From IMG/VR virus record IMGVR_UViG_2585427757_000006: a stretch of 64,000 nt of DNA, one strand, 5' to 3'. The stretch comes from a virus. Its lineage: Duplodnaviria; Heunggongvirae; Uroviricota; Caudoviricetes. A model generated the notes under the pieces. That model was given only the letters and a program-made list of their open reading frames with translations, did not search any database and was not told the DNA's origin. Positions 3,906-54,691 of the stretch are shown here, piece after piece. How positions within the stretch are numbered: the first letter of the stretch is position 1; the number at the start of each line of letters is the position of its first letter. The translations under genes were made by a program, and so were the position numbers.

Positions 3906-4011
3906 CTCCTAAACAATTTGTTTTCTTATATGACTTATTATCTCAATCAACAAAAGGTAGAAAACAAATTGTTTTAGAGTTTGTTAAAGTCAGAAGGGGT
4001 TGTGTCTATAT

Positions 4012-4040
4012 GAAAATGCCCGGCGTGTTGCCGGGCATTG
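4012..4040 (-). terminator. rho-independent terminator downstream of metG
   Basis: GC hairpin gcccggc-loop-gccgggc followed by a T-run on the minus strand. Confidence 0.6.
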
Positions 4041-4058
4041 CGAAGAGAGGGTGTTTAA

Positions 4059-6092
4059 TTACTTAACCTGGTGGCCAGGTTTAGCACCAGCATCCGGGCT
4101 TAACAGGAAGATATCTTTCCCCCCGGGGCCAGCAGCCATTACCATGCCTTCGGAGATACCAAAGCGCATTTTACGCGGTGCCAGGTTGGCCACCATAATG
4201 GTGTGACGCCCGATCAGTGCCTGCGGATCTGGGTAGGCAGAACGAATACCGGAGAAGACATTGCGTTTTTCACCACCGAGATCCAGCGTCAGGCGAAGCA
4301 GTTTGTCAGAACCTTCTACAAACTCTGCGTTTTCAATCAGCGCCACGCGCAGGTCAACTTTGGCGAAGTCGTCAAAGGTGATAGTTTCCTGAATCGGGTC
4401 GTCAGCCAGTGGGCCAGTTACCGGTGCGGCTGTGGCTTTCACTTCTTCTTTGGATGCTTCCACCAGTGCTTCAACCTGCTTCATATCGATGCGGTTATAC
4501 AGTGCCTTGAACGGATTCACTTTATGGCCCAGCAGCGGTTGCTGGATACCATCCCAGGTCAGTTCTGTATTCAGGAATGCTTCTGCACGTTCAGTCAGTT
4601 TCGGCAGTACCGGTTTCAGGTACGTCATCAGCACGCGGAACAGGTTAATGCCCATAGAGCAAATCGCCTGCAGATCGGCATCGCGTCCTTCCTGCTTTGC
4701 CACCACCCACGGAGCCTGTTCATCAACATAGCGGTTAGCCAGGTCAGCCAGTGCCATGATTTCACGGATAGCTTTGCCAAATTCGCGGCTTTCCCATGCT
4801 TCGCCAATCACTTCAGCGGCATCAGTAAAGGTTTTGTACAGTTGCGGGTCAGCCAGTTCGCTTGCCAGCACGCCGTCAAAACGCTTGTTGATAAAGCCTG
4901 CATTACGGGAGGCCAGGTTAACCACTTTGTTAACGATATCGGCATTCACACGCTGAACGAAATCTTCCAGGTTGAGATCGATATCATCAATGCGCGAAGA
5001 GAGTTTCGCAGTGTAGTAGTAACGCAGGCTGTCGGCGTCAAAATGATTCAGCCAGGTGCTGGCTTTAATAAAGGTGCCGCGAGACTTGGACATCTTCGCG
5101 CCGTTCACCGTCACATAGCCGTGAACAAACAGGTTGGTCGGCTTGCGGAAGTTGCTGCCTTCCAGCATGGCAGGCCAGAACAGGCTGTGGAAGTAAACGA
5201 TATCTTTGCCGATGAAGTGGTACAGCTCGGCGGTGGAGTCTTTCTTCCAGTATTCGTCGAAGCTGGTAGTGTCGCCGCGTTTGTCGCACAGATTCTTGAA
5301 GGAACCCATGTAGCCAATCGGCGCGTCCAGCCAGACGTAGAAGTATTTGCCCGGTGCGTTCGGAATTTCAAAACCGAAGTAAGGTGCGTCACGGGAGATA
5401 TCCCACTGTTGCAGGCCAGATTCAAACCACTCCTGCATTTTGTTTGCCACCTGCTCCTGCAACGCACCGCTGCGGGTCCATGCCTGCAACATTTCGCTGA
5501 AAGAAGGCAGATCAAAGAAGAAGTGTTCGGAATCACGCATTACCGGTGTAGCGCCAGAAACCACTGATTTCGGCTCGATCAGTTCCGTCGGGCTGTATGT
5601 CGCGCCGCAGACTTCACAGTTATCGCCGTATTGATCCGGCGCTTTACATTTCGGGCATGTGCCTTTTACAAAACGGTCCGGCAGGAACATGCCTTTTTCC
5701 GGGTCGTACAGCTGAGAGATGGTGCGGTTTTTAATAAAACCGTTCTCTTTCAGGCGAGTATAGATAAGCTCGGACAACTGACGGTTCTCTTCGCTGTGCG
5801 TCGAGTGATAGTTGTCATAGCTGATGTTAAAGCCTGCGAAATCAGTCTGATGTTCCTGACTCATTTCGCCAATCATCTGTTCCGGTGTGATACCAAGCTG
5901 CTGTGCTTTCAGCATGATTGGCGTACCGTGGGCATCGTCGGCACAGATGAAATTAACCTCGTGGCCGCGCATTCGCTGGTAACGAACCCAGACATCAGCC
6001 TGGATGTGCTCCAGCATATGGCCGAGGTGGATTGAGCCGTTAGCGTACGGCAGCGCGCACGTCACCAGAATTTTCTTCGCGACTTGGGTCAT
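4059..6092 (-). CDS. metG: methionine--tRNA ligase
   Basis: 677-aa product from [40 protein letters not shown] motif, C-terminal tRNA-binding domain; start trimmed from track ORF to the conserved N-terminus. Confidence 0.95.
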
Positions 6093-7350: not shown

Positions 7351-7357
7351 TAAAAAG

Positions 7358-7486
7358 GTGGTGCTTTTGCCGTTACGCACCCCCCCGTCAGTAGCTGAAC
7401 AGGAGGGACAGCTGATAGAAACAGAAGCCACTGGAGCACCTCAAAAACACCATCATACACTAAATCAGTAAGTTGGCAGCATCACC
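7358..7486 (-). mobile_element. IS1 left-end remnant (inverted repeat plus first about 24 codons of insA), internally truncated
   Basis: Reverse complement reads ggtgatgctgccaacttactgatttagtgtatgatggtg, the IS1 terminal repeat; encoded [24 protein letters not shown] then breaks into apbC 3-prime flank. Confidence 0.8.
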
Positions 7487-7648
7487 GAGCGCCAGCGGCG
7501 AACATATGAGCTTCGGAAATACTAGACATTCTTAACTCCGTTGTTTTCTAGTTGTGGTTATTTTCACAAATAAGAAAAGATAGAAAACAATTTATTTAAG
7601 GCCACAACTTATGGCCTTTATTTATTCATGCCGAAGGATTTGTAGCGT

Positions 7649-8733: not shown

Positions 8734-8794
8734 GTGTTTTTCTCTTATCGTTTAGTAACTACATTCTTACATAAATTAAGTAAGCATTTACCTA

Positions 8795-10480
8795 TCATTT
8801 AACGCGTTTGAAAACGTATACGCTGACTGTGATCCCTGTGTCTTCAAACTCGTTGGTAAACGACTTCCCTCTGGCATAAACGTAATTATCCATCGTCATC
8901 CAGTCCAGTATTGGCGCAGTGCCCGGCAATACTGCTACAAGACGCCCGCCGACTTTCAGATGCCCCAGCGCAGCCAGCGTGTGCTCTCTATGACGACCAA
9001 GCGAGTACGGCGGGTTCATAACGATTTTGTCGAACTGATAACCTGCGTTGTCCTCAGACCACTTTATGAAGTCGCAGCAAATCGTGTTCGTATACCCTTT
9101 TCCACGCAGGATATCAGCGAAGAGAGGTGCGATTTCTATGCAGGTAACATCTTCCAGATCGGCGTCAATATAGGCCAGAAGATCCCCACGTCCGGCTTGA
9201 GGCTCCAACAGCTTCTCACCAGGCTTCAATTCAGTGGCTCTTGCAACGTACTCAGCAATCAAGCGTGGGGTAGGGTAGAACTGGTGTGATTTTGTATCCG
9301 GTATTAAACCGGTAGCCACAATCGTATTTAGCGTATGGCCGATGTCATACGGGAACTGCCAGTGCTTTTTCTCCTGCACGCCGCCAATGAAGCTCAGTGT
9401 GCGCTCAAGCTCTTCCACCTGCGACTTCTGGAGAGCTGAATCAGAGAAGTACCATACACCTTTGTCTTTGCTCAATCGCCCGTCACGAAGCGCAGTGCGA
9501 ACCGGCACGGAGATCGTCTTCTGGATTAAACCGAACTGCTTTGGTGCCCGTGTTTTTGGCGCAGTTCGGCATGGCGCGGGGATTGCAGCAGGCATACTGT
9601 AAGCCAGCACCTCATTCAACTTCCAGGCCACGTCAGGATGTATTTCAAAGTGAACGTTGCCGTTCTTGAACATCTTCACGCGCATCAGATTTCCATCGAC
9701 GTTCATCCAGTCACCGGTCTGGCAGTCGTTTGCCCGATACGCAGCTGATAGCACCTCAGCAGTGCGGTTGATGGTAATAAATTCTTTGTGCGCGAAGAAA
9801 TGAAGCAAGACACGCAGATCGTCGATGTAGTCCTCTTTGCGATAGTTCACGCTAACGCTGTCCCGCCAGAAATCAGAAATGCAGTCAGCGATTATCAGCC
9901 GCTCGCTGAAACCATTTGTCTTATTTGTCTTGTGCACAGGACTCAGCGCCTTAAACAAGCCATACACGCGCTCAGAGAGATATTTGTGCCTGTCATTCAG
10001 CAAATTAAGCATCGTGGGTATGACCGTTTCTGCTTTGAACTCCGGTACACCAACGAACTCTTTAACCTTCATCTGGTAGCCGGTTCTGTCAGTTTTGATG
10101 ACTTCCTGTTTGCCCTCTATAAACTGCTCGCGCCACTCATCTCGACGGGAAGCTGGCATGATCAGCAAAACGTTAGTCATGTCCGTGACCTTCCTCCAGT
10201 ACTCGGCCCAAATATTCTGTTTCACCCATTCCAGATCGACTTTATCCAACCAACCTCGATTTAAACGCGAGCGATCTTCATCTGGTCGATGGTTTAGTCT
10301 CAGCAGGCGATTAATCATGTTGTGGCGTTCGTCGCCATAAACGAAGTCGTGTACCTGATACATGAAGGCGATCTCTTTCTCGCACTCGGCCACAATTTCG
10401 TGGATAACGTTCATTTCCTGACGATAATCGATAGCAGTGTTTGAGCTGGCATCGTCGATGATGGAAAGGGCTGTATTCAT
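8795..10480 (-). CDS. putative SAM-dependent N6-adenine methyltransferase with large N-terminal domain of unknown function
   Basis: C-terminal FYPTP, LEPQAGRGDLL (motif I-like) and NPPY (motif IV) in 561-aa protein. Confidence 0.55.
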   Translation of the reverse strand: MNTALSIIDDASSNTAIDYRQEMNVIHEIVAECEKEIAFMYQVHDFVYGDERHNMINRLLRLNHRPDEDRSRLNRGWLDKVDLEWVKQNIWAEYWRKVTDMTNVLLIMPASRRDEWREQFIEGKQEVIKTDRTGYQMKVKEFVGVPEFKAETVIPTMLNLLNDRHKYLSERVYGLFKALSPVHKTNKTNGFSERLIIADCISDFWRDSVSVNYRKEDYIDDLRVLLHFFAHKEFITINRTAEVLSAAYRANDCQTGDWMNVDGNLMRVKMFKNGNVHFEIHPDVAWKLNEVLAYSMPAAIPAPCRTAPKTRAPKQFGLIQKTISVPVRTALRDGRLSKDKGVWYFSDSALQKSQVEELERTLSFIGGVQEKKHWQFPYDIGHTLNTIVATGLIPDTKSHQFYPTPRLIAEYVARATELKPGEKLLEPQAGRGDLLAYIDADLEDVTCIEIAPLFADILRGKGYTNTICCDFIKWSEDNAGYQFDKIVMNPPYSLGRHREHTLAALGHLKVGGRLVAVLPGTAPILDWMTMDNYVYARGKSFTNEFEDTGITVSVYVFKRVK

Positions 10481-10581
10481 AATTACACCATTAAATAATT
10501 TGTTTTCTGATTGGTGTAATTATCGCAAACTTGAAAAGGCATAAAAGCTGCATTCATAGGCGTTACAGCAGATTTAAGGCG

Positions 10582-10621: not shown

Positions 10622-11188
10622 TTAGAGTGCGTATTGCGTTTTGTGCGGCTGCTTATTCAAGTCATGGCGATGCGTGAGCTCCCGCATCATGTCTTCAAGG
10701 CGACTCTTTGTGTCGTCGAGCTGGTCGGCCATTGCACCTAAAAGCTGGCGAACGGCCATCGGATCGTCGCTGTTTAGTGATGGCATTTTAGAACCTGCTT
10801 TAGAAGACATAAGGTTGATTGCAGACATCAACATCGTTAGAGAGGATTTAAGCCCGGCAATTTCACGATCTTTGCTGGCAATAATCGTCTCACTTTTGTT
10901 ACCGTCATCAGTTTCTTGAGTCTCGCTCACCATATCCAAAGTCGCTTGCAACTTATCAGCTCTCTCTTTTTCAGCAAGGTAATGAACACCGAAATGGTGT
11001 GCCAAAGCTACAATCTGAGTTGGCTCTTCAAAGGTGGAATTAAAATTAAGTATTGTAAACAGTCTCTCAAATATGGAAACGTCTTCTATTCCTCGAAGAA
11101 TGGCTAACATTTTGACCAGTTCATTAGCATCCATTTCTTCGAATAAGGCGTTTTGTTCATCAGCTATTGCTTTGCATTTCTCGCACAT
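10622..11188 (-). CDS. hypothetical protein
   Basis: 188-aa ORF preceded by motif aaacaagttgttttcttat and an SD. Confidence 0.45.
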   Translation of the reverse strand: MCEKCKAIADEQNALFEEMDANELVKMLAILRGIEDVSIFERLFTILNFNSTFEEPTQIVALAHHFGVHYLAEKERADKLQATLDMVSETQETDDGNKSETIIASKDREIAGLKSSLTMLMSAINLMSSKAGSKMPSLNSDDPMAVRQLLGAMADQLDDTKSRLEDMMRELTHRHDLNKQPHKTQYAL

Positions 11189-11327
11189 GTGTTTTCCTTA
11201 ATGCTTAAACAAGTTGTTTTCTTATTGGTTTTATTGTGATGTGGCATAAAAGGGGAGCAAGCTAAACGTAAAGGTGCAAACTCTCTATTTCGGTCAACGA
11301 AACACAAGGGCCATTTGGCCCTTGTCA

Positions 11328-11486
11328 TTAACACTTTGCTTTACGAACTAACGGATAAGCGAAGTAGATCGCCAAACCAATGAGGACGCCATCAGAAATG
11401 ACAGACATCATCTTTCCCGTAAAATCCACCAACACCGCCATCACCAGAAGAGCAATGACGATCACAAGCCGGAATCTCTCAAGCAT
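11328..11486 (-). CDS. small hydrophobic membrane protein, 52 aa
   Basis: MLERFRLVIVIALLVMAVLV; start overlaps upstream stop in a TAATG arrangement; below the 60-aa track cutoff. Confidence 0.4.
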   Translation of the reverse strand: MLERFRLVIVIALLVMAVLVDFTGKMMSVISDGVLIGLAIYFAYPLVRKAKC

Positions 11487-11911
11487 TAGAGATAAGCATC
11501 CAGTGACAACTGAAGCGCCTGGGCGATCTTTTTCAGTGCCTGCTCTTCTTGTTCACCAATGCCGTCCTGATCGGCAATATCAAGGCACAGACACAGAACA
11601 TCGACCGCCTCTGGAGTACCCGCAATATCAGACAGCTCACGAATAGCCTGTGCATTAGCAGAACGAGGGGACGCTTCGTAACGAGCACGGATATTGGCGC
11701 TCATTTGGGCAATTTCACCAGCAAACGGAGAAAACGCAGGCAGAGCTGCAATTGTCTTCTCAAGAATGGCAATTTCTTTTGCGTCACATGTGCCGTCGGC
11801 ATAGGAGATCATGTACGCGCCCCACACGGTGGCCTCAACCGCATCACGGTTCTCCATTTTTTTGACTTCGATAACTGCTTTACGAGTTTTCTTTTTGAAG
11901 AAACCTAACAT
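11486..11911 (-). CDS. TerB-like domain protein
   Basis: Two DG-x-E repeats (YADGTCDAKEIAIL and IADQDGIGEQEEQALKKIA) resembling tellurite-resistance TerB. Confidence 0.45.
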   Translation of the reverse strand: MLGFFKKKTRKAVIEVKKMENRDAVEATVWGAYMISYADGTCDAKEIAILEKTIAALPAFSPFAGEIAQMSANIRARYEASPRSANAQAIRELSDIAGTPEAVDVLCLCLDIADQDGIGEQEEQALKKIAQALQLSLDAYL

Positions 11912-12004
11912 GTGTTTTCCTTTTGTTATTTGTCAAAACAAGTTGTTTTCTAGTTAAATAAATTGCTTACGCAAAGACGGTCAATGCATATGTACTAACA
12001 ACCG

Positions 12005-12697: not shown

Positions 12698-12845
12698 GTG
12701 GACTCCATCCAGTGTCAGAAAGAGTTGCGGCTGGCGATTGCCAGCCGCTTTTCTCGTTCCATCCTGGAACTGTGTCTTACCGACACATTGTCATCCTGAC
12801 GCCGATAAGATACATGATTTAAAATGATAGGTAAACACTTACTTA

Positions 12846-22124: not shown

Positions 22125-22189
22125 GTGTTTTTCCTTTTTCTTTTTTGGTGCGTTTAAACAAGTTGTTATCTTATGTGTTTAAACAAGGC

Positions 22190-24546: not shown

Positions 24547-24619
24547 GTATCACCAAATAAAGAGGGCCACTAAATATAGTGGCCCATGTTAATAGATAAG
24601 CACTTACCTATCAATGAAA

Positions 24620-30365: not shown

Positions 30366-30383
30366 AATGACAAAGGTGTCCAC

Positions 30384-31478
30384 ATGTCCACAAAAAATAA
30401 AAAAGGTAAAAATAACAAAGAAGTAGAAGATAACATCGACAACTTTGAAGAAGGTTCCCTTGAATTGTACACAGGGGAACTTGTCCCTAATAGCAACAAT
30501 ACAGTCCAACCAATTGCGTTGATGCGACTGGGGTTGTTCGTCCCCACGCTTAAGGGAACAAAATACAGTAAACGTAACAAGCCAAATGAGATCGATGCTT
30601 CAAAGGAGCTTGTCCAGCTCGAAGTAGCCCGTTCTGAAGGCTATTCCGATATCAAGATAACCGGTCCTCGTCTCGACATGGATCATGATTTCAAAACGTG
30701 GGTGGGCGTTGTGCGTTCGCTGGCAGAATACGGCGAACCTAACGGTCGTGTCGAGTTAAGCATCACGAAATTTGCGAAGTTTTGTGGCTATCCATCGTCA
30801 CAGATCCGCAAAACACTCCGCGACCGGCTTACAAACAGTCTTTTGAAGATCATGCGTACAACTCTGTCTTTCCAGAGAACGTATGAAGAAAAGAACGTCG
30901 ACGGCTCTAACAAGATCTCGCTTCTGATGGTGCACCTCATCAATAGCGTGGACTACAACGAGCAGAAAGATACGGTGGTGTTCTATGCAGAACCGAAGCT
31001 GGCCGAACTATATCGCTTTGACCATAAGGTTCTTTTGCAGTTAAAGGTTATCAATAAGCTACCACGCAAAGAAACAGCACAGGCTCTGTACACCTTCATC
31101 GAAAGTCTTCCAACCAAGCCTGCGCCGGTATCGCTTGCTCGATTGCGTGCGCGACTCAATTTGAGTAGCAGGAATGTCAGCTCGCAGAATCAGACTATAC
31201 GTAACGGCTTAAAAGCTCTCCAAGATTTGGGCTATCTCGAATACAGCGAGATTAAGCGTGGGCGGTCGATCTATATCCAGATTCACAGCCGCAATCCAAA
31301 ACTCAAAGTCGCACCGCCAAAACCTGAAGACATCGAACCCAAAAAACCAGATGAGAAAGCCGGGGAAATTGATGCCAAACAGAACATTATCAATAAGATA
31401 ACCGAACTTTCGCAGAATTTGACGCCTGAAAATATCAAGATGATTGAGATCCTTTCCAATAGTCTCAAACTGCTTTGA
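30384..31478 (+). CDS. repA: iteron-binding replication initiator RepA (P1/RepFIB-like)
   Basis: NSNNTVQPIALMRLGLFVP, GYSDIKITGPRLDMDHDFKTW, YTFIESLP, HSRNPKLK resemble P1-type RepA; start set at MSTKN with SD aggtg; track ORF 5-prime part is read-through of iterons. Confidence 0.85.
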   Translation: MSTKNKKGKNNKEVEDNIDNFEEGSLELYTGELVPNSNNTVQPIALMRLGLFVPTLKGTKYSKRNKPNEIDASKELVQLEVARSEGYSDIKITGPRLDMDHDFKTWVGVVRSLAEYGEPNGRVELSITKFAKFCGYPSSQIRKTLRDRLTNSLLKIMRTTLSFQRTYEEKNVDGSNKISLLMVHLINSVDYNEQKDTVVFYAEPKLAELYRFDHKVLLQLKVINKLPRKETAQALYTFIESLPTKPAPVSLARLRARLNLSSRNVSSQNQTIRNGLKALQDLGYLEYSEIKRGRSIYIQIHSRNPKLKVAPPKPEDIEPKKPDEKAGEIDAKQNIINKITELSQNLTPENIKMIEILSNSLKLL

Positions 31479-32010
31479 TATGCTGTCAGCGGTGAAATGT
31501 ATGCTATCAGCGGCTATTTTTCTGAAAAGTATGCTGTGAACGGTTAAAGATATGCTACCAGCGGTATAGTGAGATGAACGTATGCTGTGAGCGGTAAATC
31601 ATCTATCACCACTCAATGCTCTGCCATACCTCCCCAGTGGTTACTAACCTCGAAGAGTGCATTCCATATAGGTTTGCGCTCACTAACATTCTATTGCTAT
31701 TGCGCTGATTGCTTGTAGTGAAAGGCATTTATTGCCTGCTACTCCCTGATAGAATGTATGCTGTCAGCGGTGTTTTATTGAGGAATTTTTGTTTGGATAT
31801 GCTATCAGCGGTAATTAATGGTATATGTCAGACCTTCGTATGCTGCCAGCGGTAATTTTGTTCTGGTTATACCCATACCGGGACACATTATTCATGCAAT
31901 GTCTTAAGTATGCTGTCAGCGGTAAAAAATCGAGTAAAGTATGCTGTGAGCGGTGAGATAGACTCTCGATATGCTATCAGCGGTAGTTGATTGTGTATGC
32001 TGTCAGCGGT
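31478..32010 (+). repeat. incA-like iteron array downstream of repA, about 12 copies in two clusters
   Basis: Repeated tatgctgtcagcggt and variants (gctatcagcgg, gctgtgagcgg, gctgccagcgg) with a 150-bp spacer. Confidence 0.85.
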
Positions 32011-32057
32011 GACGACTATGAAATATGACTGCGGAACGTGCCGCAGTCAGTTTGCAT

Positions 32058-33098: not shown

Positions 33099-33159
33099 GT
33101 TTTCTCCTTGTTGGTAAGTACTTATCTATCTTAATGGACGCTATAAGGCGCACAATCAT

Positions 33160-38181: not shown

Positions 38182-39462
38182 CTATTGCTCAACCATTTCT
38201 GGGGTGATTTTTATTTTTCCTGTCACGGCGCTGTTGATCAGGGTGGTTTTGTATTCTTTAAGCTTTTCAATCTGCGACTTTTGGATATCAATCGTGCGAT
38301 TCAGATCTGGCTCAATTCCTTCAATGAACGAAATTATTTCTTGAATTTCATCTTTTGGTGGCACTGGAACCAATACACTTGCAAGACGATCCCTTGTTAA
38401 TTTTGGCTGTGCCGCACCAGAAATATATACCGTATAGTCCAATCCGCTTAATAATTCGGCCCAGTATTTAAAACCATGAAATTTTGGCTTAATAATATGT
38501 GCATGGTTATTCACCCAATACTTTCCAGTTGCAACAAAAGCCAATGGTGTTGACTTGCTTAGCAAATTCGCGCCATCTTCAGCGATCAAGATTAAATCTT
38601 CATCAAAGATGTAGTCATCAACATAATCGATAACACCACTTGCTCCGTAATACGGATATACGCCCTGTCTCGACTCTCTCTCAACTGCGCTTATTGGAAC
38701 TCTTCTACTGTTAAGAAACTCAAACGCATATCTCAATGACATTAAGTTCCAATGCGCTGGAATCTTACCAATCCAATCCACACCGGAGTCTTTCATTGGC
38801 ACATTGGGATCAAGCCCTTGGGTCACCGCCTGTTGGATGATGATCTGCTTACGCTCTTTCAGCAGGCTAATTTGCTGCTCTTTGATCGAAATCGCTTCGT
38901 CGATTAGAGCGGTTTTCTTGTCGAGAAAATTTGCAATTAGGGACTGCTCTTCTTCTGAAGGCAGAACAAAAGGAATCACCTTCATCCGTGCTTTTGAAAG
39001 GTCCCACTGACCAATCCTTACACCATCTGATGCACTACCAAAAAACGATACATATAACTTACTGCGTATCGCCCAATTGAAAAACTCAGGATTTATTGCC
39101 TTTGTAAAATCAAAAATAAAATACGCAGGACTTACAATTCCAGTGAACTTTGATACACCGTAAGAACCCTGCCACGCTTTCATTTTATTCATTCCAAATT
39201 GACCTTTCTCAAGCTTTTTATAGCCGCTAAGATCATCTGGTATAAAATTGTGATTTGACTCTTGATTATCCACGTCTCTCTCGATAACACCTTGTTCGCG
39301 TGTTATCGAAAGTAGTGGCAATTCAGGGCAGTTTTTGACCGACACCGGAGATAGGCACGAGCCTAACTTAACCAAGTCCCAATGCTCTGGAATCTCGCCA
39401 ATCCACTCATAACCAGAGTCACTATATTGATCATACTTTAGCGTTGAGGTAATGCTTTCCAT
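38182..39462 (-). CDS. hsdS: type I restriction-modification specificity subunit
   Basis: 426 aa, two-repeat architecture with conserved central and C-terminal helical spacers; 1-nt overlap with hsdM stop. Confidence 0.8.
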   Translation of the reverse strand: MESITSTLKYDQYSDSGYEWIGEIPEHWDLVKLGSCLSPVSVKNCPELPLLSITREQGVIERDVDNQESNHNFIPDDLSGYKKLEKGQFGMNKMKAWQGSYGVSKFTGIVSPAYFIFDFTKAINPEFFNWAIRSKLYVSFFGSASDGVRIGQWDLSKARMKVIPFVLPSEEEQSLIANFLDKKTALIDEAISIKEQQISLLKERKQIIIQQAVTQGLDPNVPMKDSGVDWIGKIPAHWNLMSLRYAFEFLNSRRVPISAVERESRQGVYPYYGASGVIDYVDDYIFDEDLILIAEDGANLLSKSTPLAFVATGKYWVNNHAHIIKPKFHGFKYWAELLSGLDYTVYISGAAQPKLTRDRLASVLVPVPPKDEIQEIISFIEGIEPDLNRTIDIQKSQIEKLKEYKTTLINSAVTGKIKITPEMVEQ

Positions 39463-42519: not shown

Positions 42520-42609
42520 GTGTTTTCCTATGTGGCTATTGTGTGTAGATGGTGAGTAAGTGTTTATATATTTTCAAGGTATAAAGGCGTCCATTCGGAC
42601 GCCTGAAAA

Positions 42610-43683
42610 TTAATCTTCTAATTCATCTGTCGGTGATGTCTTCTCGCGCCTGTCATCTATTGCCTGTAACGCAGCAATGATTTCAGCTAATGGCTTCTCC
42701 CGGTACATCTCGACGATCTGTGATTTGGTGTATTTCTTCTCGCCAATTTCCACACGCCCGCTGGCGCTCTTGGGCAGGTATCCTTCCTCCAGCATGTATT
42801 CAACCAGAGACTCGACGACGTCCAGCCCGCGAGTCGGGTCGAAGTAGAATTTCCATGAGCATTTGCCAAACGGAGGCGCGACTTTGTTTTTAATGCACTC
42901 GGCGCCAACGTCCTGTCCGATCTTCTCTTTGCCATCCTTCATGACGGATGCACCCAGACGGATGCGCACCGACGCGTAGAACTTCGGAGAGTCGCCACCC
43001 GGAGACGTAGTCGGATCGCCAAACATCACACCAATTTTGGTACGCACCTGGTTCAAGAAGATGATGCACGCGTTGTACTTACGCGCCCAAAGCGCCAGAG
43101 TAGGGAAGTTCGCACTTGTCGCGCGCGCCAGCGCCGTGTTGTCGTTCATGTTCAGCTGATCTTTGTCTTTCGCAGTGCCTTCTGCCATCTTGTCGAACTT
43201 CTCAGCCTTCGAGTTCGGAACCATCGACGCCAGAGAGTCGGCTACGATGCAGATAGGGGCTGTTTCCGGAATAAGCTCTTCGTCGCGCACCAGCTTGAGG
43301 ATTGTGCCGATCAGCTCTACGGAGTCTTCGAAGGTATCCGGCTGTTTGTAGACCCACTGACCGTCATCCTCATCTGCGTTCAGGCCATTGGCTACAGCCA
43401 GGCCAACGTCAAAACTGTTTTCATGATCGAGGAATACCGCCAGACCATCTTGTTTTTGAGCGGAGATCATCGCTGCTGTTGCAAGGAACGTTTTCCCTGC
43501 ACTTGGAGGACCGAATACTTCGACGATACGACCACATGGGAAGCCGCCATCGTAACGACCAGAAATAGCTTTGTTTAACGGTGGAAAGCCTGTATCAATC
43601 CAATGAGTTACTTTCTGAATTTCGTCGTTGCTACCGATTTTCTTTTTCAGAGCAAGTGCCAGTGCGGATTTTCCTTTTGCCAT
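42610..43683 (-). CDS. RecA/UvsX-like recombinase
   Basis: Walker A GPPSAGKT, RecA-like core, acidic C-terminal tail. Confidence 0.7.
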   Translation of the reverse strand: MAKGKSALALALKKKIGSNDEIQKVTHWIDTGFPPLNKAISGRYDGGFPCGRIVEVFGPPSAGKTFLATAAMISAQKQDGLAVFLDHENSFDVGLAVANGLNADEDDGQWVYKQPDTFEDSVELIGTILKLVRDEELIPETAPICIVADSLASMVPNSKAEKFDKMAEGTAKDKDQLNMNDNTALARATSANFPTLALWARKYNACIIFLNQVRTKIGVMFGDPTTSPGGDSPKFYASVRIRLGASVMKDGKEKIGQDVGAECIKNKVAPPFGKCSWKFYFDPTRGLDVVESLVEYMLEEGYLPKSASGRVEIGEKKYTKSQIVEMYREKPLAEIIAALQAIDDRREKTSPTDELED

Positions 43684-46660: not shown

Positions 46661-47830
46661 TCACGTCTTAATAGTTTCTGCTACGTCGGCTAATATCGCT
46701 TCTAGTCGTTCTCCCTCTTCAGGTCTGAAGTAAAGAATGTTGGGGTTAAACCCGTAAAAGACAGTAACGTCAAGGTCTGGAAGATACTCCTTCCTGCCGA
46801 CCAAATCGGATGGCTTGTTTTTGTTGTTAAACAATGAAGTTGCCCGGCTGCCACACGTCAGCACATAGGTCGGACGCACCAGATTGATCTCTTCACGCAT
46901 AAAGTCGGTGAACTGGCCGATCTCGTCTTTGGTGTAGTCTTTTTCTTTGTCTTTAACCTTCTTGCAAACACCTGTGACATAGAGATCGCCCATGCGTAAA
47001 TCTCCAGCCGTCAATAGCTTGGCCTTAAAGTCGTCGTATCCGTTCTCCATAAAGTAACCGGTTCGAGCATCATTGCCGTTCGCATTGTCCAGAATGATCA
47101 TGATTTTCGGCTTAATACCAATGCTGGGGCGGATTAGTTCATCACCTAAGCCCATTTCAGCCGCCATCCGCGTCATGAGTACGTTAATTTCAGCCGAACG
47201 TTTGGGGTTCATCTCAAACGGACGTGAGGCTTTAACTGCGTCTATGACAAGGTTTCCCATCAATTCAGCCTGGTCGCGTAGGCGCTCTGGATCAGTTGCT
47301 GGCAGACTGCCTGGCTCGATGGATGCAAACGCCCCTACTTTTTGCAGCGATTCGCGCACTCGACTATTACAGGCACGTTTCTCGACAGCTTCTTCGAATT
47401 GCGCCAGTGACTCGAATTTGCCGCCAACTTTTTCTCGCGCTCTCATGATGGCTTGGCAGCCATTCTCAGAACACCCCTTCACAGCAGAGAAGGGCGCATA
47501 CAGCACCTGGCTGCCATCTTCAAGCGTGCGGATCTCGATTCGGTTAGATGACACGTTAACGTCTGGTGGCAATACGCGAATGCCATAGGTCAGCGCATCT
47601 TTAACCAGCCCCTGGTGTTTATCTTCGCCAAGAATAGTGAGAGCAGCAGCGAAAAACTCTGCGGGATAATGAGTTTTCAACCACATAGATTGATAACTGA
47701 TTAAGGAGTAAGCAACAGAGTGTGATTTGTTGAAGGCATACGCGCCGGATTTCTCAAACATATTCCAGATTTCTTCGGCTCGTTCGTGCGTCAGGCCATT
47801 GCTCTCTTCGACAACACCGGTAATTTTCAT
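46661..47830 (-). CDS. dnaE: DNA polymerase III alpha (DnaE-like) C-terminal fragment
   Basis: AYAFNKSHSVAYSLISYQSMWLKTHYPAEFFAAAL matches the DnaE finger region; own start codon overlapping the HNH gene stop. Confidence 0.75.
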   Translation of the reverse strand: MKITGVVEESNGLTHERAEEIWNMFEKSGAYAFNKSHSVAYSLISYQSMWLKTHYPAEFFAAALTILGEDKHQGLVKDALTYGIRVLPPDVNVSSNRIEIRTLEDGSQVLYAPFSAVKGCSENGCQAIMRAREKVGGKFESLAQFEEAVEKRACNSRVRESLQKVGAFASIEPGSLPATDPERLRDQAELMGNLVIDAVKASRPFEMNPKRSAEINVLMTRMAAEMGLGDELIRPSIGIKPKIMIILDNANGNDARTGYFMENGYDDFKAKLLTAGDLRMGDLYVTGVCKKVKDKEKDYTKDEIGQFTDFMREEINLVRPTYVLTCGSRATSLFNNKNKPSDLVGRKEYLPDLDVTVFYGFNPNILYFRPEEGERLEAILADVAETIKT

Positions 47831-48561
47831 GCAGTCACCTCATCAATCTTCACGAACTCATCCCCATTGGAGGCCAGCCAGTTCCGTTGGCGCTCCCAGC
47901 TCCATATCTCTTCACGCATTTCACTATGCAGGCGAATGTGGGCGTCTTCTGGAAGTGCTACAAGATTCCCAGGGGCGTTATCTATCGTATCGCGGTTAAT
48001 ATGGTGGACATGTTCATCGTCACGTAGCTCCCGACCGAGACGTTCTTTCGCTATCAATCGATGAACGTATTCGTATTGCGAAACGCCATTGTTACCAACC
48101 AGCTGCATCATGTAGCCGTTGGTTTTTACGATGATGCCACCTTTGTAGTTGTTCGCTTCTTCTCCGATCTTTCCGCGTTTGGCAGCCGCCAGCTTTTCCT
48201 TCGTCTCCGCGCGGATTGTTCTGCCGGTTAGCTTTTTCGAAACGGTGGCCACTCGCTCATCGATATCAGCACGCAGACCGGCATTCCACGAGGTTTTCCC
48301 ATACATAGGGTTGCCAGTGCCAGTCCGGGCTTCGGAGAGACGCTTCATACGTTCGTCATTATTTTTGTTTTTGCCACGATTCCAGGCTGGGGTAGCGGAG
48401 ATCCGCGCGCTTCCGCGCCTGATCCCCCATTTGGCTAATAAGCGGTCAATATTTGCCTTGCTGCAACCAGCTTCGGCGGCAATGTCTTCTTTTCTCATCA
48501 GGTCAACCATGTAACGCTGACGTAACCATTCTTCTGTGATTTTGTACTTCGTACTCGGCAT
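47827..48561 (-). CDS. HNH homing endonuclease with NUMOD-like repeats
   Basis: EHVHHINRDTIDNAPGNLVALPEDAHIRLH HNH motif; NPMYGKTSWNAG repeats; own promoter-proximal motif. Confidence 0.8.
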   Translation of the reverse strand: MPSTKYKITEEWLRQRYMVDLMRKEDIAAEAGCSKANIDRLLAKWGIRRGSARISATPAWNRGKNKNNDERMKRLSEARTGTGNPMYGKTSWNAGLRADIDERVATVSKKLTGRTIRAETKEKLAAAKRGKIGEEANNYKGGIIVKTNGYMMQLVGNNGVSQYEYVHRLIAKERLGRELRDDEHVHHINRDTIDNAPGNLVALPEDAHIRLHSEMREEIWSWERQRNWLASNGDEFVKIDEVTA

Positions 48562-48609
48562 TTCTAAGACTCACTAAACAAATTGTTTTCTTATCTTATA
48601 AATTAATTC

Positions 48610-50973
48610 TCAAATATCGAAGCTCGTTATGTCGGCATTTATTGCCATTGCTTCGGCATAAGTGCGACGCTCACCATCAGCACAAAGTAGGCGTGCTGCT
48701 TTATGGATTTTTCTCGTAGAACCATCATCCAGTGACACTGTCACCCAGCCTTCCTCCGCTCGCTTAATGAAGTCGCCGCCAATGGATTTCATTTTCTCCA
48801 TATCTTTTTTCCCGATCGCTTTCCTGACCGAGTCTGCTTCCGCCATTGAGAACCCCGCCAAGATTCGCGTAGCAGCCATGATCTGTTCCTGATAAATCAG
48901 AACTCCGTTTGTGTCGCGAGAGATGTCGTCCAGCATTGGGTGTAAGGAATGTGGGGCCATGAAGCCTTTGGCCACGGACACATAATCGTCCAACATGCCG
49001 GATTGAATCGGGCCAGGTCGGAAGAGCGCAGTTGTAGCGACGACCGTTTTAAAGCTCATTGGCTCAATTCCACCACCTAAATCTTTAAGCAGCTTGCGCA
49101 TTGGGCCTGATTCAAGCTGGAATACGCCCTGTGTATACCCTGCAGCAAAACCATCCAGCACCTTGCGATCTTCAAGAGAAATGGCATCAAGATTGATATC
49201 TTCACCTGTGTTCTCTTTTATGTAGCGTTTTGCACTATCGAGCAAATCGAGAGTTGCCAGGCCAAGCACGTCCAGCTTAATTAGGCCCATAGCCTCGCAG
49301 TAACGCTTGTCAAATGCGATACAACGCGCGTCACCACGGCGTTCAACCGGTGTACGTTCTGTCAGAGGAACACCTGCTACGATCATCCCTGCCGCATGTC
49401 TACCAAAGCCACGCATAAGGCTTTGTAACTTGCAGGCTGCATTGAATGCATCAGGATATTTTGTTGCGTATTTGTCGAGACTTGCCAGTTGTTCGCGCAG
49501 CTCTTCCAATGGAAGGCTATCATCCTCGACGTTCTTCAGTTCTTTTGATACCGCCATATCTGCGGACTCCACACCATAAATACGAGCGGTGTCACGTAGT
49601 GCAGAGGCTGCGCCCAGGTAGGTGAAGTTCGGAATGCCTGCAACGTAATCTTCGCCGTAGCGTTCATTCAGATACTCGATCACCTCATGGCGACGTGCCT
49701 GGCTGAAGTCCAAGTCCGCATCCGGCAAGTCGAGACGCTCAGGGTTGATGAAACGCTCAAACAGAAGACCGTGACGGATTGGGTCGACGTTGGTTATGCC
49801 TATGCACCACGCCACCAGAGAACCGGCAGAGGAACCACGACCAGGCCCAACGGGAATGCCAGTTTCACGACTATGATTCATCAGATCGCGCACCATCAGG
49901 AAGTAACCACAGAATCCCAGGCGAGTCAGCGTGTCCATTTCGTACTTTAGCCGCTCAACATAAACCCTGTTCTCAGAAGCAGGTGGTGTGTATCCAAACT
50001 CTTTTGTGGTAAGACGTTTACGCAGCCCTGCAACAGCCAGTTTCATCAGCGTTGCAGGTTCGTCGTCTGCCATCTTGGGCAGTGCTGGTGGCAATTCATG
50101 CCAGCGCCATGTGCAGGCATCGATAATGGAGTCCTGCGTTGTTGAGGCCATTGCAGCTGTTACCGGCACATCCATGCGAACGGAGAAGGCTTTAAGCGCC
50201 TCAAGGAGATGGCGACGACCATTGATGGCGTTATCTCGCTGGTGGGGGATACGCAGACGATGCGGCTGGTCGATTTTTATGTTGTTCGTAACCATGTGCG
50301 CAATGTCTTTAATGTCTGCATCGTCGATCGATTCGTAATAAGCGGGATAGAACGCCACTGGCTCTATTTTCAATGCGCTGGCGACTTTCATCGCCCGGAC
50401 GTTAATCTGGTCGTAGAATGGGGTAGGGTGCGGATAAACCACACTATAGAAGTTGTCTTTTCCACCCGCTGTAATCAGTGTGCTTATGATTTTTGCAAAA
50501 TCGTTGCGTTGGAACACGCTACCGATGTCGGAAGTAAGCAGGATGATGTTGCCTTTGGCATATGTAGAAACCAACTGTTCGAGCGAGAGACGCGGCACAA
50601 AGTAGAACTGTTCTCGTGTGTTGGCCACCGTCATTAGTTCGCAGATGTCGCGATATCCTTGCTCATTTTTAATTAGAGCGGTAAACGAGTAGTTACGTCC
50701 CCGCTCTAATGATTCCATACATCTCATAGATTCTTTAGCAAGTTTAGCCCGGTGCTCGTATGTGGGATCATCAACAATGTTTAGTTTCACACCACAAATA
50801 ACCGCCATGTCGTCACCAGCGGCACGTTGTAGTGGAATAACGCTCGCAATATTCATGCTATCTGCTGAAATTACAGCGGTGTAGCCAGCTTCTCTGGCAA
50901 TCTTCACCGCGTTTTCAGCTTTTAGAGCCGACTCCCCAAGTGAGAAGTCAGTTCGAACCATCAGTGCCTTCAT
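48610..50973 (-). CDS. dnaE: DNA polymerase III alpha (DnaE-like) N-terminal fragment (PHP and polymerase core)
   Basis: GIPVGPGRGSSAGSLVAWCIGIT, DADLDF, KLDVLGLATLD, ALFRPGP; homology ends 44 codons before the stop. Confidence 0.8.
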   Translation of the reverse strand: MKALMVRTDFSLGESALKAENAVKIAREAGYTAVISADSMNIASVIPLQRAAGDDMAVICGVKLNIVDDPTYEHRAKLAKESMRCMESLERGRNYSFTALIKNEQGYRDICELMTVANTREQFYFVPRLSLEQLVSTYAKGNIILLTSDIGSVFQRNDFAKIISTLITAGGKDNFYSVVYPHPTPFYDQINVRAMKVASALKIEPVAFYPAYYESIDDADIKDIAHMVTNNIKIDQPHRLRIPHQRDNAINGRRHLLEALKAFSVRMDVPVTAAMASTTQDSIIDACTWRWHELPPALPKMADDEPATLMKLAVAGLRKRLTTKEFGYTPPASENRVYVERLKYEMDTLTRLGFCGYFLMVRDLMNHSRETGIPVGPGRGSSAGSLVAWCIGITNVDPIRHGLLFERFINPERLDLPDADLDFSQARRHEVIEYLNERYGEDYVAGIPNFTYLGAASALRDTARIYGVESADMAVSKELKNVEDDSLPLEELREQLASLDKYATKYPDAFNAACKLQSLMRGFGRHAAGMIVAGVPLTERTPVERRGDARCIAFDKRYCEAMGLIKLDVLGLATLDLLDSAKRYIKENTGEDINLDAISLEDRKVLDGFAAGYTQGVFQLESGPMRKLLKDLGGGIEPMSFKTVVATTALFRPGPIQSGMLDDYVSVAKGFMAPHSLHPMLDDISRDTNGVLIYQEQIMAATRILAGFSMAEADSVRKAIGKKDMEKMKSIGGDFIKRAEEGWVTVSLDDGSTRKIHKAARLLCADGERRTYAEAMAINADITSFDI

Positions 50974-52389: not shown

Positions 52390-52484
52390 GCGTTTTTCCT
52401 TTGTTCTCTAATGAGCGTTCAACTTCTTATATAAATATATCATCATCTATCGTAAGTAGTTACTTATCGTTAAGGCTGTTTTGT

Positions 52485-54593
52485 TCACTTTAAAATGATA
52501 CGAGATAGTTCAGTAACTACAGATGAACCAAGACTATCAACGCTCGTTACCAGGGCATGATTTGAGTAAAATCTCTCCGGTGCGTCAGTCATGATGCCAA
52601 TTGCCATCAAATCAATATCAGTCTGCGTTTCAATTTGCTTCGCAACTGAACGCAAATGAGCGTCAAAACCTCTCCCAACAGCCCACGGCGCGCCATCACT
52701 CAGAACAAGCATGATCTTCCTGTCCTCCATGCGACCGGAAAATAACGATGCAAGGCTGGCTATGCTTTCACCATCCACGTTATTAAGAAGTGGGAATGTG
52801 TAGCCTACGCACCCCATACGTGAGCGAACTTCGCGAGAATTTACCTTTTCATTCCAATTTTTGATGATAGGTAGCATTAAAGATTCAAAGCGAGAGAACT
52901 CATACTTGACAGCCTTAAGTTCTCCTGCCGCCATATGACTACCAAATGTAGTGAAGCCGGTGATAATGTTGGGAACATTTATTCGATCAAGGGCATCGGC
53001 GATGGTATATGCACTTGCAAGAGCCAGTTTAATCGTTATACCACTCATTGAACCTGATAAATCAATCACTTGTTGAACACAGGCGTTAACGGCTTTAGAT
53101 TCTTCTTTTTTACGAAACACGCGAGCATCATTCATTGCTAATCTGTAGATACTAGAACCATGAATGCGCCCCCGACGCTGGCCCGGTATAAACTGAACTC
53201 TGTTTCTGCTTGCTATTGCTCGCTCCAGGTCTTTTGCCAGCGTCGACGAAACACCTGACGAAAGATGCTTTTCAATATATTTGTCGAAGAGCTGGTTGCC
53301 TTCAGGAACGATGCGATAGCGGCTGATTGGATATCCTCCCAAATCAATATCGGAGAATGTTTTAATAAGCCGTTTGATATGGGCTTCTGCCTGATCAATG
53401 GAGCCGATGAAGTCGTATGAGCGATTGTATGGCCTGTATTCGCTTTTCGAGCTTTCTGTTAACTCGCTTTTAATCGTTTCGGATAGCGCATCTTCTGTCA
53501 TGCCTCCGACTTCATCTTCCATGCTATCCAACTCCTCTAAAGCCTCTTCCAGACTCATTTTTGACGGAGTTGGGATATCTGAAGAGCCGTCTTCTGTCGT
53601 TTTTCTTTTTTCGTGGTCAGCGGTTAATGATTCTGACGCCGCGTTATCAGAAGCATCAGAATCTGATACCTCTTTATCATTTTCTGTATCATCGAATATT
53701 GTTTCTGATGATTCAGAATTATCTGAATCATCACTGTCGTTATTATCATGTTTGTGCTTACTATGTGATTCTGATTTGATAGATTTGTGGTTATCTAACA
53801 CTGAGGGTGTCTCATGATCTTCGTTGTCTTCACTGTTTTCTCCAGAGGCATCCGTCTGGTCAGCGTCTGAAGGATCGGAAGTTTTTCCCGGAGCTGACTC
53901 CTTACCTTTGCTTTCACTTTCAGTGTCTTTGAGGATCTTAGCTATGGTCGCAGCCACCTTTACACAATCCTCGGTGCAAGACATGTTACGCACGGCCACA
54001 TCGATACCATGTTCTTTTAATAATGAAATTGGTTTCTCAATGACAGGCCAATATTCATCCATGAAATCTACGAACGGTGCTTGGCCATCCCAGGCTCTTA
54101 CAACCGGACAGAGAAAGAAGTTTAGAAAAAGCGCGCGCTGATCTTTGCCACAATAAGCAATAGCCTCTGAAGCCTTTGGTTTAAAGACTTTTTCGATTAT
54201 AAGGCGCTGAGTTGCCATCAGATTACGTCTTGTTCCGTTAAAGACCTGACCCATTTTTCGCTCGATGAACACGTCTTCTAAGGCATTCCATAGCGACCAG
54301 GAAGGAACGCGTCCTTTTTCTCTCATTTTGTTGGACACACGAATATCGGTAAACAAAATGTGAGCAACCTCATGATCGAGAAATCCGCGCACAGCATTCA
54401 TCAATGCCGGTGTTGCGTTATCCGGGATTGATGGGATGTTTACGAGAATTGGCTCTCCATCATCGTTATAGCGTACATAAGCGTCGTCCCCTCGTTCTGC
54501 AACAGGGATGTTTTTACCTGAAAGGAGAGCGACTACTCGTTTTACACTGTCACGGAAGTCCTGAACCTCTTTGATGGAACGTTTTTTAGACAT
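52485..54593 (-). CDS. von Willebrand factor A domain protein (CobT-like partner of the AAA+ ATPase)
   Basis: MIDAS motif VIDLSGSMSG; long acidic Ser/Asp-rich low-complexity linker. Confidence 0.65.
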   Translation of the reverse strand: MSKKRSIKEVQDFRDSVKRVVALLSGKNIPVAERGDDAYVRYNDDGEPILVNIPSIPDNATPALMNAVRGFLDHEVAHILFTDIRVSNKMREKGRVPSWSLWNALEDVFIERKMGQVFNGTRRNLMATQRLIIEKVFKPKASEAIAYCGKDQRALFLNFFLCPVVRAWDGQAPFVDFMDEYWPVIEKPISLLKEHGIDVAVRNMSCTEDCVKVAATIAKILKDTESESKGKESAPGKTSDPSDADQTDASGENSEDNEDHETPSVLDNHKSIKSESHSKHKHDNNDSDDSDNSESSETIFDDTENDKEVSDSDASDNAASESLTADHEKRKTTEDGSSDIPTPSKMSLEEALEELDSMEDEVGGMTEDALSETIKSELTESSKSEYRPYNRSYDFIGSIDQAEAHIKRLIKTFSDIDLGGYPISRYRIVPEGNQLFDKYIEKHLSSGVSSTLAKDLERAIASRNRVQFIPGQRRGRIHGSSIYRLAMNDARVFRKKEESKAVNACVQQVIDLSGSMSGITIKLALASAYTIADALDRINVPNIITGFTTFGSHMAAGELKAVKYEFSRFESLMLPIIKNWNEKVNSREVRSRMGCVGYTFPLLNNVDGESIASLASLFSGRMEDRKIMLVLSDGAPWAVGRGFDAHLRSVAKQIETQTDIDLMAIGIMTDAPERFYSNHALVTSVDSLGSSVVTELSRIILK

Positions 54594-54691
54594 GGCTAAT
54601 CCTTTGTTATGAAAACAAATTATTTACTAGTGTGTTTAATGTAGCACTGCGCGAACAGGGAACTAAGCCATTCGCGCAGGGAGAAGAGGGG

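Follow-up and report, generated by a model that had tools for sequence, protein, structure and literature searches.

A dispersed 13-base palindrome downstream of extended -10 promoters as a candidate operator in SSU5-like phage-plasmids

The KorA/KorB regulon of the IncP plasmids links partition to global silencing, with KorB acting at around a dozen promoter-proximal sites, each of them a 13-bp palindrome with a 6-1-6 layout and a free centre. In the type Ib partition systems of pSM19035 (delta/omega) and TP228 (ParF/ParG), the gene of a small ParA of the Walker kind precedes that of a small partner that binds DNA, and this partner represses the par promoter. Furthermore, omega represses several other promoters via 7-bp units that also serve as centromeres, and type Ib centromeres are usually repeat arrays located upstream of parA. 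With regard to phages, the sopC partition sites of N15 are said, in work by Ravin, Rech and Lane in 2008, to be scattered near phage promoters and to influence phage gene expression. A geometry of a different kind is known from lacO1. The centre of this palindromic operator lies near +11 to +14, RNA polymerase is blocked by it, and an auxiliary operator stands at helical-repeat distance. The present analysis concerns a 13-base palindrome, here called motif A, in the window, that is, the whole 64,000-nucleotide stretch of the IMG/VR virus record IMGVR_UViG_2585427757_000006. By its similarities the window is a phage-plasmid of the SSU5/pHCM2/Cyrano type from E. coli: from around position 3900 on it shows 97-99% identity to E. 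coli SSU5-group phage-plasmids (Escherichia phage CMS-2020a and Cyrano, which is pLF82), its identity to Salmonella phage SSU5 and the Klebsiella relatives is around 78%, and plasmid pLAU-OXA1 has a CobT-like protein 100% identical to the one encoded here. The reading to which we give slightly better than even weight is that motif A would be the operator of a lineage-specific DNA-binding protein, which would hold a set of extended -10 promoters off together.

With at most one mismatch, AAACAAnTTGTTT / AAACAANTTGTTT is found 10 times in the 64 kb, compared with 0.54 matches expected from 100 dinucleotide shuffles (standard deviation 0.69, maximum 3), and a position-weight scan finds the same sites as a clearly separated top group (Table 1). 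In the sense of the genes that follow, the palindrome reads AGAAAACAAnTTGTTTA. A preliminary description of this stretch had noticed a recurrent palindrome ahead of gene starts; the recurrence is real and the coordinates given for it hold, with certain corrections to the list of copies. The cores start at 2596, 3911, 3962, 7585, 10493, 11207, 11936, 22156, 48576 and 54613, and nine or ten of the ten are intergenic. Three of these regions (3908, 3954 and 11204) are also intergenic in the annotated relative Cyrano. The sole copy inside an annotated hypothetical coding sequence (a CYRAN_103 homologue) is the one at 2596, which has one mismatch and is kept at the same place in Cyrano and in SSU5, where the annotation leaves it intergenic. 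The minus strand carries most genes of the window, and seven copies stand in sense orientation (3911, 10493, 11207, 11936, 22156, 48576 and 54613), all of them facing minus-strand genes, with 11-31 nt between the end of the core and the start codon. The proximity to start codons claimed earlier applies to the seven sense copies and not to the inverted ones, which do not precede start codons: the sites listed at 3959-3975 and 7583-7598 are complete inverted copies, and the sense copy or half-site that shares a promoter with each of them follows 51 bp downstream. Additionally, the site listed at 7538-7553 is the left arm alone (TAGAAAACAAcgg), a half-site that likewise precedes the HD-phosphohydrolase gene in SSU5, and the copy at 2596 had been missed.

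Motif A forms part of a unit that is conserved beyond the palindrome itself. In gene sense, this unit consists of gCCTTTT, around 13 nt, the extended -10 element TGnGATAAT, 10 nt (aAcaCCAAcA) and AGAAAACAAnTTGTTTA, followed by a Shine-Dalgarno (SD) sequence and ATG. In the window, a recognisable -10 precedes five of the seven sense copies, with 8-10 nt in between. Copies were pooled from 103 IMG/VR loci and from five relatives, four of them complete and one partial, which gave 334 unique contexts that fall into 119 non-redundant clusters. In 43 of the 119 clusters, 10-11 nt separate the end of the best -10 hexamer from AGAAAACAA, and a second mode at 17 nt corresponds to the inverted copies. 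Among the 46 members of the promoter-type subset, 22 have GATAAT, the most frequent hexamer, and 26 have the TG extension, with poor matches to a -35. Several cassettes have an intrinsic terminator of the preceding gene just upstream of them, which makes a fresh promoter necessary there. The operator had earlier been proposed to overlap the promoter; the tie to promoters stands, and the site itself lies downstream of the -10 rather than over the -35/-10 region. If transcription starts about 7 nt after the -10, as we infer, the palindrome would span approximately +8 to +20 and the full conserved block approximately +4 to +21. The distance to the -10 is fixed, and the distances to the SD and to the start codon are variable. 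In intergenic alignments of orthologues motif A persists where the spacer to the SD has changed, as in the case of the nrdB copy (22156), which is kept in Cyrano, SSU5 and pJN2-26 while this spacer varies. Measured between their centres, paired copies are spaced by either 25 bp (in 6 distinct sequences) or 51 bp (in 14), the single exception being one pair at 105 bp.

The variation within the palindrome bears on whether it acts as DNA or as RNA. Each palindrome position carries 1.3-2.0 bits, far more information than the rest of the cassette, and the centre carries 0.0 bits, with near-even base use in the 119 clusters (A40 T28 G27 C24). Around 60 single-arm substitutions were found in the 6+6 core, none of which is compensated in the opposite arm. 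Because the centre is free and the arms vary without compensation, pairs occur at 25 and 51 bp, the upstream partner lies outside the transcribed region and the distance to the -10 is fixed, motif A looks like the operator of a dimeric protein that binds duplex DNA, and not like a leader-RNA element or a hairpin. The behaviour expected of a dimeric operator, which the preliminary description had put forward, is therefore borne out at the level of the site.

An action in the mRNA leader, through an RNA-binding protein (of the T4 RegA kind, or Hfq/FljA-like) or through the tuning of stability or translation, appears quite improbable in comparison. It would account for the constant sense orientation of the main copies and for their place between the likely transcription start and the SD, 11-31 nt from the ATG, as well as for the A-rich half, the U-rich half and the asymmetric flanks. 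Part of motif A also resembles AAAAUUGUUAUG, which we take to be the T4 RegA SELEX consensus, and the family encodes an FljA-type post-transcriptional repressor with a weak Hfq-like match. Nevertheless, recognition of a single-stranded RNA offers no reason for reverse-complement symmetry around a free centre, and the features of an RNA hairpin, terminator or attenuator are absent, given that the 6-1-6 layout would leave a 1-nt loop, with which a hairpin cannot form, and there are no compensatory changes. The inverted copies stand upstream of the -35, outside the mRNA and at a fixed 51 bp, and it is the distance to the -10 that is fixed, not that to the SD or the ATG. A RegA-type site should overlap the initiation codon, which motif A does not reach, and a search for RegA homologues, with one RegA sequence as the query, found none. 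Moreover, an Rfam search of the window returned tRNAs only, with no family for motif A. The FljA-like CYRAN_114 was considered as a binder and set aside, as the fliC leader of E. coli, the known FljA target, does not contain motif A; it is treated here as an unrelated accessory gene. CYRAN_114 (Cyrano 100780-101301) encodes a full-length FljA-type 'repressor of phase-1 flagellin' (Pfam Flag1_repress, 1e-80), again with a weak Hfq-like match, and may silence the translation of host flagellin.

The same architecture is found across the enterobacterial relatives. SSU5 has approximately 20 copies, which precede parA, dnaB, cobT, a ninX-like gene, nrdB, the DUF4942 methylase gene and a run of small early genes, and two of its copies lie 25 bp apart in the promoter before the small terminase gene. 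Orthologous copies precede cobT in SSU5, pJN2-26 and pMT1, and the overall pattern of SSU5 is also seen in Cyrano, in Klebsiella pJN2-26 and in pB-KP1118-1, which has a CobT with only 46% identity. When IMG/VR was scanned for exact matches to AAGAAAACAANTTGTTTA, at least 120 loci were obtained; among the 120 matches listed, 103 are SSU5-like by BLAST, and the remaining 17, in coding or AT-rich DNA, have the look of isolated matches due to chance. A search of GTDB genomes for relatives by means of CobT gave a single locus, of no relevance here. No dispersed motif A was found in the phage-plasmids of Acinetobacter and Aeromonas, which share the backbone at around 30% protein identity. Since the matches are mainly SSU5-like and these relatives have no dispersed copies, motif A is, as far as the sequences indicate, specific to the enterobacterial SSU5 lineage and not common to other enterobacterial phages. 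Literature searches for the motif and for SSU5 operators and promoters returned no description, and motif A, its promoter cassette and the corresponding regulon appear to be undescribed for this phage-plasmid family, a dispersed operator regulon as such being well known. With regard to the late operon, the promoter before terS carries one or two copies, 25 bp apart, in the relatives (Cyrano 1-135, SSU5 1-134, pJN2-26 38560-38683), and a strong terminator-like hairpin, AGAGCGC..GCGCTCT with a T-rich run, directly follows these copies and precedes terS. This layout suggests an antitermination control of the late operon.

Per-gene RNA-seq values for Cyrano, which the LF82 study reports to be induced by ciprofloxacin, are given for the LF82 lysogen in a supplementary table (PMC9928086). 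The first genes behind motif A have values of 7.1, 21.1, 7.8, 5.7, 12.9 and 7.0, and further first genes 7.1, 7.5, 12.8, 12.2, 6.7 and 25.5, the median of the element being 9.8 (PMC9928086). The exception is the parA operon, with 50, 89 and 55 (PMC9928086). That extended -10 promoters close to the consensus stay silent in the plasmid state is in line with active repression, although the test is a weak one, as promoters with a broken or absent downstream copy are silent too; the level of the parA operon is as expected from autoregulation. The motif does mark a set of genes, namely nrdB, the putative HNH gene, the cobT-like gene, the DUF4942 methylase, the tciA-like gene and the small early genes; their co-regulation, stated outright in the preliminary description, is put here conditionally.

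With regard to the protein, the most likely candidate for the binder is the partner of ParA, although we propose it tentatively and at rather less than even probability. It is favoured because motif A co-occurs with the par module and sits at the parA promoter across lineages. The genes for ParA and its partner lie outside the window, that of the partner 4-5 kb beyond its right end. ParA is a 222-aa protein of the Walker type (GGTKGGPGKST) that lacks a helix-turn-helix (HTH) at its N-terminus, and the small partner gene, which directly follows it, encodes 117-124 aa with an Arg/Pro-rich tail (CYRAN_29 and pLAU-OXA1 29439-29792, 117-119 aa). The parA promoter carries motif A in Cyrano, SSU5, pJN2-26, pB-KP1118-1 and pLAU-OXA1, and in the distant Klebsiella lineage motif A and the -10 are the only conserved island of this promoter. 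A Moellerella plasmid with a homologous ParA-partner pair has its sole exact AAGAAAACAA in 34.5 kb at the parA promoter, and none at its cobT and helicase promoters. Furthermore, one of only three one-mismatch matches in 42 kb of an Acinetobacter element falls in the 200-bp region upstream of par, and this match, AAACATTTTGTTT, is the same variant as the par site of pB-KP1118. Within E. coli, Salmonella and Klebsiella the identity of the partner is 91-98%, compared with 51-54% to the form of the distant Klebsiella lineage; the blocks QGRPTRGK..I.SRTMS.EDE and RSDVIRAAI are invariant, and the family of the partner is found only on Enterobacterales elements of roughly 100-115 kb. It is expressed in the lysogen, with a value of 89 (PMC9928086). 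No DNA-binding domain was found in the small early proteins encoded behind motif A promoters.

A different protein, the XRE-type HTH protein at 55155-55541 (CYRAN_45 homologue), had been suggested as a candidate binder in the preliminary description, and several points count against this suggestion. It would make motif A the operator of a CI-like prophage master repressor acting on all these promoters, which we regard as unlikely. The HTH protein is probably a lysogeny regulator, since it is expressed in the LF82 lysogen (96) and belongs to a module that is present in plasmid pHCM2 and missing from the plaque-forming SSU5. Its predicted recognition helix is near-identical in four motif-bearing enteric lineages and different in Acinetobacter and Aeromonas, and ACAA/TTGT half-sites are typical of 434-type HTH repressors. 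However, its own divergent promoter region contains no motif A, the conserved block there being GGTAAGTGCTTACC followed by GATATT (motif B, described below). Motif A is missing from the cobT and helicase promoters of the Acinetobacter, Aeromonas and Moellerella elements, in which orthologues of the HTH gene occupy the same position, and SSU5 keeps approximately 20 perfect copies without the HTH gene. A sequence search of the PDB with the HTH protein gave no relatives to suggest its specificity. The module in question, which comprises an integrase, the HTH regulator and a 70-aa gene between the tRNA region and cobT, is present in pHCM2, Cyrano, pJN2-26 and pMT1 and absent from SSU5 (SSU5 42525-42761 compared with pHCM2 69176-71886); SSU5 may be a repressor-less, obligately lytic derivative.

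Several observations weigh against a repressor acting on motif A, or against the ParA partner as that repressor. The sense copies at 11936 and 22156 have no convincing -10, and a simple -35/-10 scan calls none of the cassette promoters, which such a generic scanner misses because of their poor -35 matches. The position of the motif relative to +1, around +4 to +20, depends on the start assumed above. The flanks of the palindrome are asymmetric, AGA being conserved towards the promoter and A, not T, on the opposite side; this is attributed to the initially transcribed sequence, and is still the best argument for an action in RNA. At the par promoter, a single palindrome is present and no repeat array stands next to parA. 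The Y. pestis plasmid pMT1 has no par module yet keeps motif A; as a natural case of module loss it was set aside, as its divergence is too recent to be informative. Finally, the Cyrano methylase gene, which has only the left half-site, is still silent in the lysogen, as are CYRAN_93 and CYRAN_108, which have only the upstream inverted copy. Since genes with broken sites are also silent, motif A is not the sole reason for the silence, or these promoters need an activator.

The latter would be in line with a positive or non-repressing factor, such as a lytic activator, the loading of an antiterminator or lytic ParB-like proteins, or with an Enterobacterales host factor, explanations which we consider rather doubtful. 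Promoters whose downstream copy is broken or missing are silent in the lysogen as well, and the cassette promoters in general lack a -35, so that they may need activation, and the copies followed by a hairpin in the late-operon promoter of the relatives are reminiscent of antitermination; however, that terminator follows the late promoter only, and an action from +14 is rare for activators. Among the enteric lineages the ParB-like protein shows 87-88% conservation, and the KorB operators are 6-1-6 palindromes, but the ParB-like genes are at background in the lysogen and also occur in the Acinetobacter and Aeromonas relatives without the dispersed motif. For a host factor speaks the fact that motif A is invariant across hosts and missing in non-enteric relatives; against it, the exact IMG/VR matches are SSU5-like for the most part and, among the matches listed, no other enterobacterial phage group uses the site. 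We know of no E. coli regulator with the consensus of motif A, and to our knowledge none of the consensus sequences of KdgR, PurR, NrdR, PhoP, RcsB, TyrR, Fis, LexA and the sigma-28 promoter fits it. The closest is that of KdgR, with half-sites 2 bp closer together.

The cassettes also mark places at which the relatives differ. The homology of the window to Cyrano breaks off where motif A cassettes stand, at 3906 (5 nt past the 3911 copy), at 7555 (between the -10 and the half-site), at 10545 (just upstream of the methylase promoter) and at 48562-48730; judging from these alignments, the promoter cassettes seem to be joints where relatives exchange gene modules. In the last of these regions, a dnaE-type polymerase gene is split (46661-50973) into the fragments 48610-50973 and 46661-47830, which flank a 244-aa open reading frame (ORF; 47827-48561) with a motif A cassette of its own. 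In Cyrano, dnaE is continuous, and both the 244-aa ORF and its promoter region are absent. A NUMOD4 gene of the homing-endonuclease type occupies the same place of dnaE in the Acinetobacter and Aeromonas relatives, and in the Acinetobacter gene AAACAGGTTGTTT stands 2 nt before the ATG. The HNH label of the 244-aa ORF stems from the preliminary description and from analogy to these relatives, and is putative.

These breakpoints, the copy carried by the ORF that interrupts dnaE and the similarity of the whole -35 to +22 module among paralogues would also be compatible with a motif that has no dedicated binder, and that is the conserved part of a promoter cassette spread by duplication and recombination and serving mainly as a homology patch for cassette exchange. 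We hold this to be very improbable. The palindrome stands out from the cassette in its information content, its half-sites are mirror images around a free centre, and the site persists where the flanks have diverged. The mirror-image half-sites and the free centre imply selection on a dyad site and not simple shared ancestry.

On the operator reading, motif A would be built into a reusable promoter cassette of the SSU5-like phage-plasmids, in the order terminator of the previous gene, weak -35 region (gCCTTTT), TGnGATAAT, 10 nt, palindrome, SD and ATG. A dimer, or a dimer of dimers, bound at around +14 would block RNA polymerase as LacI does at lacO1, and the second, inverted copy 51 bp upstream (around -38) at some promoters would allow for cooperative binding or for looping over the core promoter. 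One protein could thus silence around 10 promoters in the window and around 15-20 per genome, among them those of early and nucleotide-metabolism genes, that of the parA operon and the late operon's first promoter. If the partner of ParA is the binder, the motif A sites would double as partition-protein sites. Taken further, a partition adaptor may in a second role repress the early and late-operon promoters globally, and around 20 lytic promoters may have received its operator as a copy from the par promoter, with the sites also being centromeres; this extended proposal is speculative, and we rate its chances as clearly below even.

Phage-plasmids of the SSU5/pHCM2 type are common in clinical E. 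coli, Salmonella Typhi, Klebsiella and Enterobacter and carry resistance genes, and roughly 800 PLSDB records contain this par module. The literature searched yielded nothing on the switch of SSU5-type phage-plasmids between plasmid life and lytic growth. A 17-bp site at +14 of about 20 promoters would offer a direct experimental handle on this switch, and the sites would define which genes form the co-regulated early set. Should a partition protein indeed bind motif A, partition and prophage repression would be compactly fused in one regulator and one site. The cassette boundaries also appear to be swap points of gene modules between relatives.

Table 1. Coordinates of motif A copies, associated promoter elements and motif B in the window
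Feature	Position	Strand	Remarks
Weak motif A copy AAATAAGTTGTTT, status uncertain	2593..2616, core 2596-2608	+	Inside ORF 2359-2832
Motif A sense copy ATATAAGAAAACAAATTGTTTAGG	3908..3931, core 3911-3923	-	Before 82-aa gene 3657-3905; core ends 11 nt before likely ATG
Extended -10 TGaGATAAT, promoter of 3911 copy	3937..3945	-	10 nt from AGAAAACAA
Motif A inverted upstream copy	3954..3977, core 3962-3974	+	Centre 51 bp from 3911 copy; on -35 side of same promoter
Left half-site only, CTAGAAAACAAcgg	7531..7554	-	Downstream of TGtGAAAAT; gene behind cut by IS1 remnant
Motif A inverted upstream copy, 1 mismatch	7577..7600, core 7585-7597	+	Abuts terminator hairpin 7598-7618
Motif A sense copy AAACAAATTATTT	10490..10513, core 10493-10505	-	Before DUF4942 methylase gene 8795-10480
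-10 TGcGATAAT of methylase promoter	10519-10527		Terminator 10604-10589 just upstream
Motif A sense copy	11204..11227, core 11207-11219	-	Before 188-aa gene 10622-11188
-10 CACAAT of 11207 copy	11233-11238		Terminator 11325-11304 upstream
Motif A sense copy	11933..11956, core 11936-11948	-	Before TciA/TerB-like gene 11486-11911; -10 weak
Motif A sense copy AAGATAACAACTTGTTT	22153..22176, core 22156-22168	-	Between nrdA and nrdB, after nrdA terminator hairpin
Motif A sense copy	48573..48596, core 48576-48588	-	Before 244-aa ORF 47827-48561 interrupting dnaE frame
Motif A degenerate sense copy AAATAATTTGTTT	54610..54633, core 54613-54625	-	Before cobT-like gene 52485-54593
-10 TGcTACATT of cobT-like gene promoter	54638-54646		
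Motif B	8780-8791, 12831-12842, 24596-24607, 33114-33125, 52452-52463, 55111-55122; 45835		45835 probably chance

A second palindrome, motif B (full form GATAGGTAAGTGCTTACCTATC, core GTAAGnnCTTAC), has 7 matches in the window compared with 1.23 expected. It precedes other minus-strand genes (nrdA, cobS, an ead-like gene and others), lies in the promoter region of the HTH gene and is usually directly followed by a TAnnnT hexamer. Roughly 12-25 copies are found in each of SSU5, Cyrano and pJN2-26, including copies before portal, tail-fibre and holin genes, and motif B also occurs in the Acinetobacter (TAGTAAGCGCTTACTATAAT) and Aeromonas relatives. It resembles the late promoters of P1 (AAGTGACTT, 4 nt, TAnnAT), although no Lpa homologue was found. 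Two other repeats were considered in connection with motif A and rejected. In the Acinetobacter element, the repeat AACGGTACAAAAACTCCG represents iterons next to repM rather than an analogue of motif A, and in the window the iteron TATGCTGTCAGCGGT is unrelated to it; around 17 of the latter flank repA (30264-31478), at 30242-30383 and 31479-32030, and represent the plasmid replicon.

As to the remaining content of the window, positions 1-1830 are an IS21-family element with a G+C content of 0.54, above that of the rest, in which istA is cut at the window edge and istB is complete. An IS1 fragment with 98.5% identity lies at 7357-7490; near it, the window is devoid of CYRAN_93-98 (eae/ea22-like genes and a LexA-like S24 peptidase gene) in comparison with Cyrano, and only a 15-codon stub is left of the HD-phosphohydrolase gene that follows the half-site at 7538. 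Four tRNA genes are located on the minus strand at 59161-59718 (Ser-TGA, Thr-TGT, Tyr-GTA and Asn-GTT), where Cyrano has three and SSU5 one. The gene at 56890-57426 is a homologue of CYRAN_43, the top-expressed Cyrano gene in the LF82 lysogen (7084, median 9.8). A domain search with this homologue gave no match, and relatives of CYRAN_43 are scattered over the chromosomes of Dickeya, Yersinia and Erwinia, for which reasons it is probably an accessory or defence-type cargo gene and was set aside in the search for the binder.

Compared with the described systems, the C1 operators of P1 are similar to motif A in that they belong to a phage living as a plasmid and that one operator is scattered at the promoters of separate operons, with some operators paired. 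Some C1 operators, for instance Ossb, also lie directly downstream of the -10, as motif A does. Conversely, the P1 operator is an asymmetric 17-mer (ATTGCTCTAAT...), unlike the 6-1-6 palindrome. No motif A copy was found in the 48 kb of P1 examined, and tblastn searches of SSU5-like genomes for C1, Coi and Lpa gave no homologue (best E-value 0.7 or worse). Membership in the P1 C1 operator network was accordingly rejected, the operator sequences being different and C1, Lpa and Coi homologues being absent. A KorB/ParB-type operator is not supported either, as the ParB-like genes do not track motif A in Acinetobacter and Aeromonas and are at background in the lysogen. KorB is a ParB-family HTH protein, whereas the ParB-like genes of the SSU5-like elements are silent in the lysogen and present in relatives without motif A, and the KorB operator sequence, TTTAGCSGCTAAA, is unrelated to it. 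In the case of lacO1, the likeness is one of geometry alone, the sequence and the protein family being unrelated.

For the link of motif A to partition, which we infer and liken to that of N15, the differences are that N15 has four sites and a type Ia SopAB system, with a reported effect that helps late expression, compared with around 20 sites at +14 of early-type promoters for motif A. Among the features of type Ib partition, the small ParA with its partner gene and a site in the parA promoter, presumably bound by the partner, are present, and the repeat array is absent. Unlike the heptad arrays of omega, motif A forms single palindromes over about 20 phage-gene promoters, and omega is a ribbon-helix-helix protein, a fold that is not confirmed for the ParA partner. 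Motif A consists of two inverted 7-bp units and is present at the parA promoter in five lineages, as would be expected from sites of the omega/ParG type.

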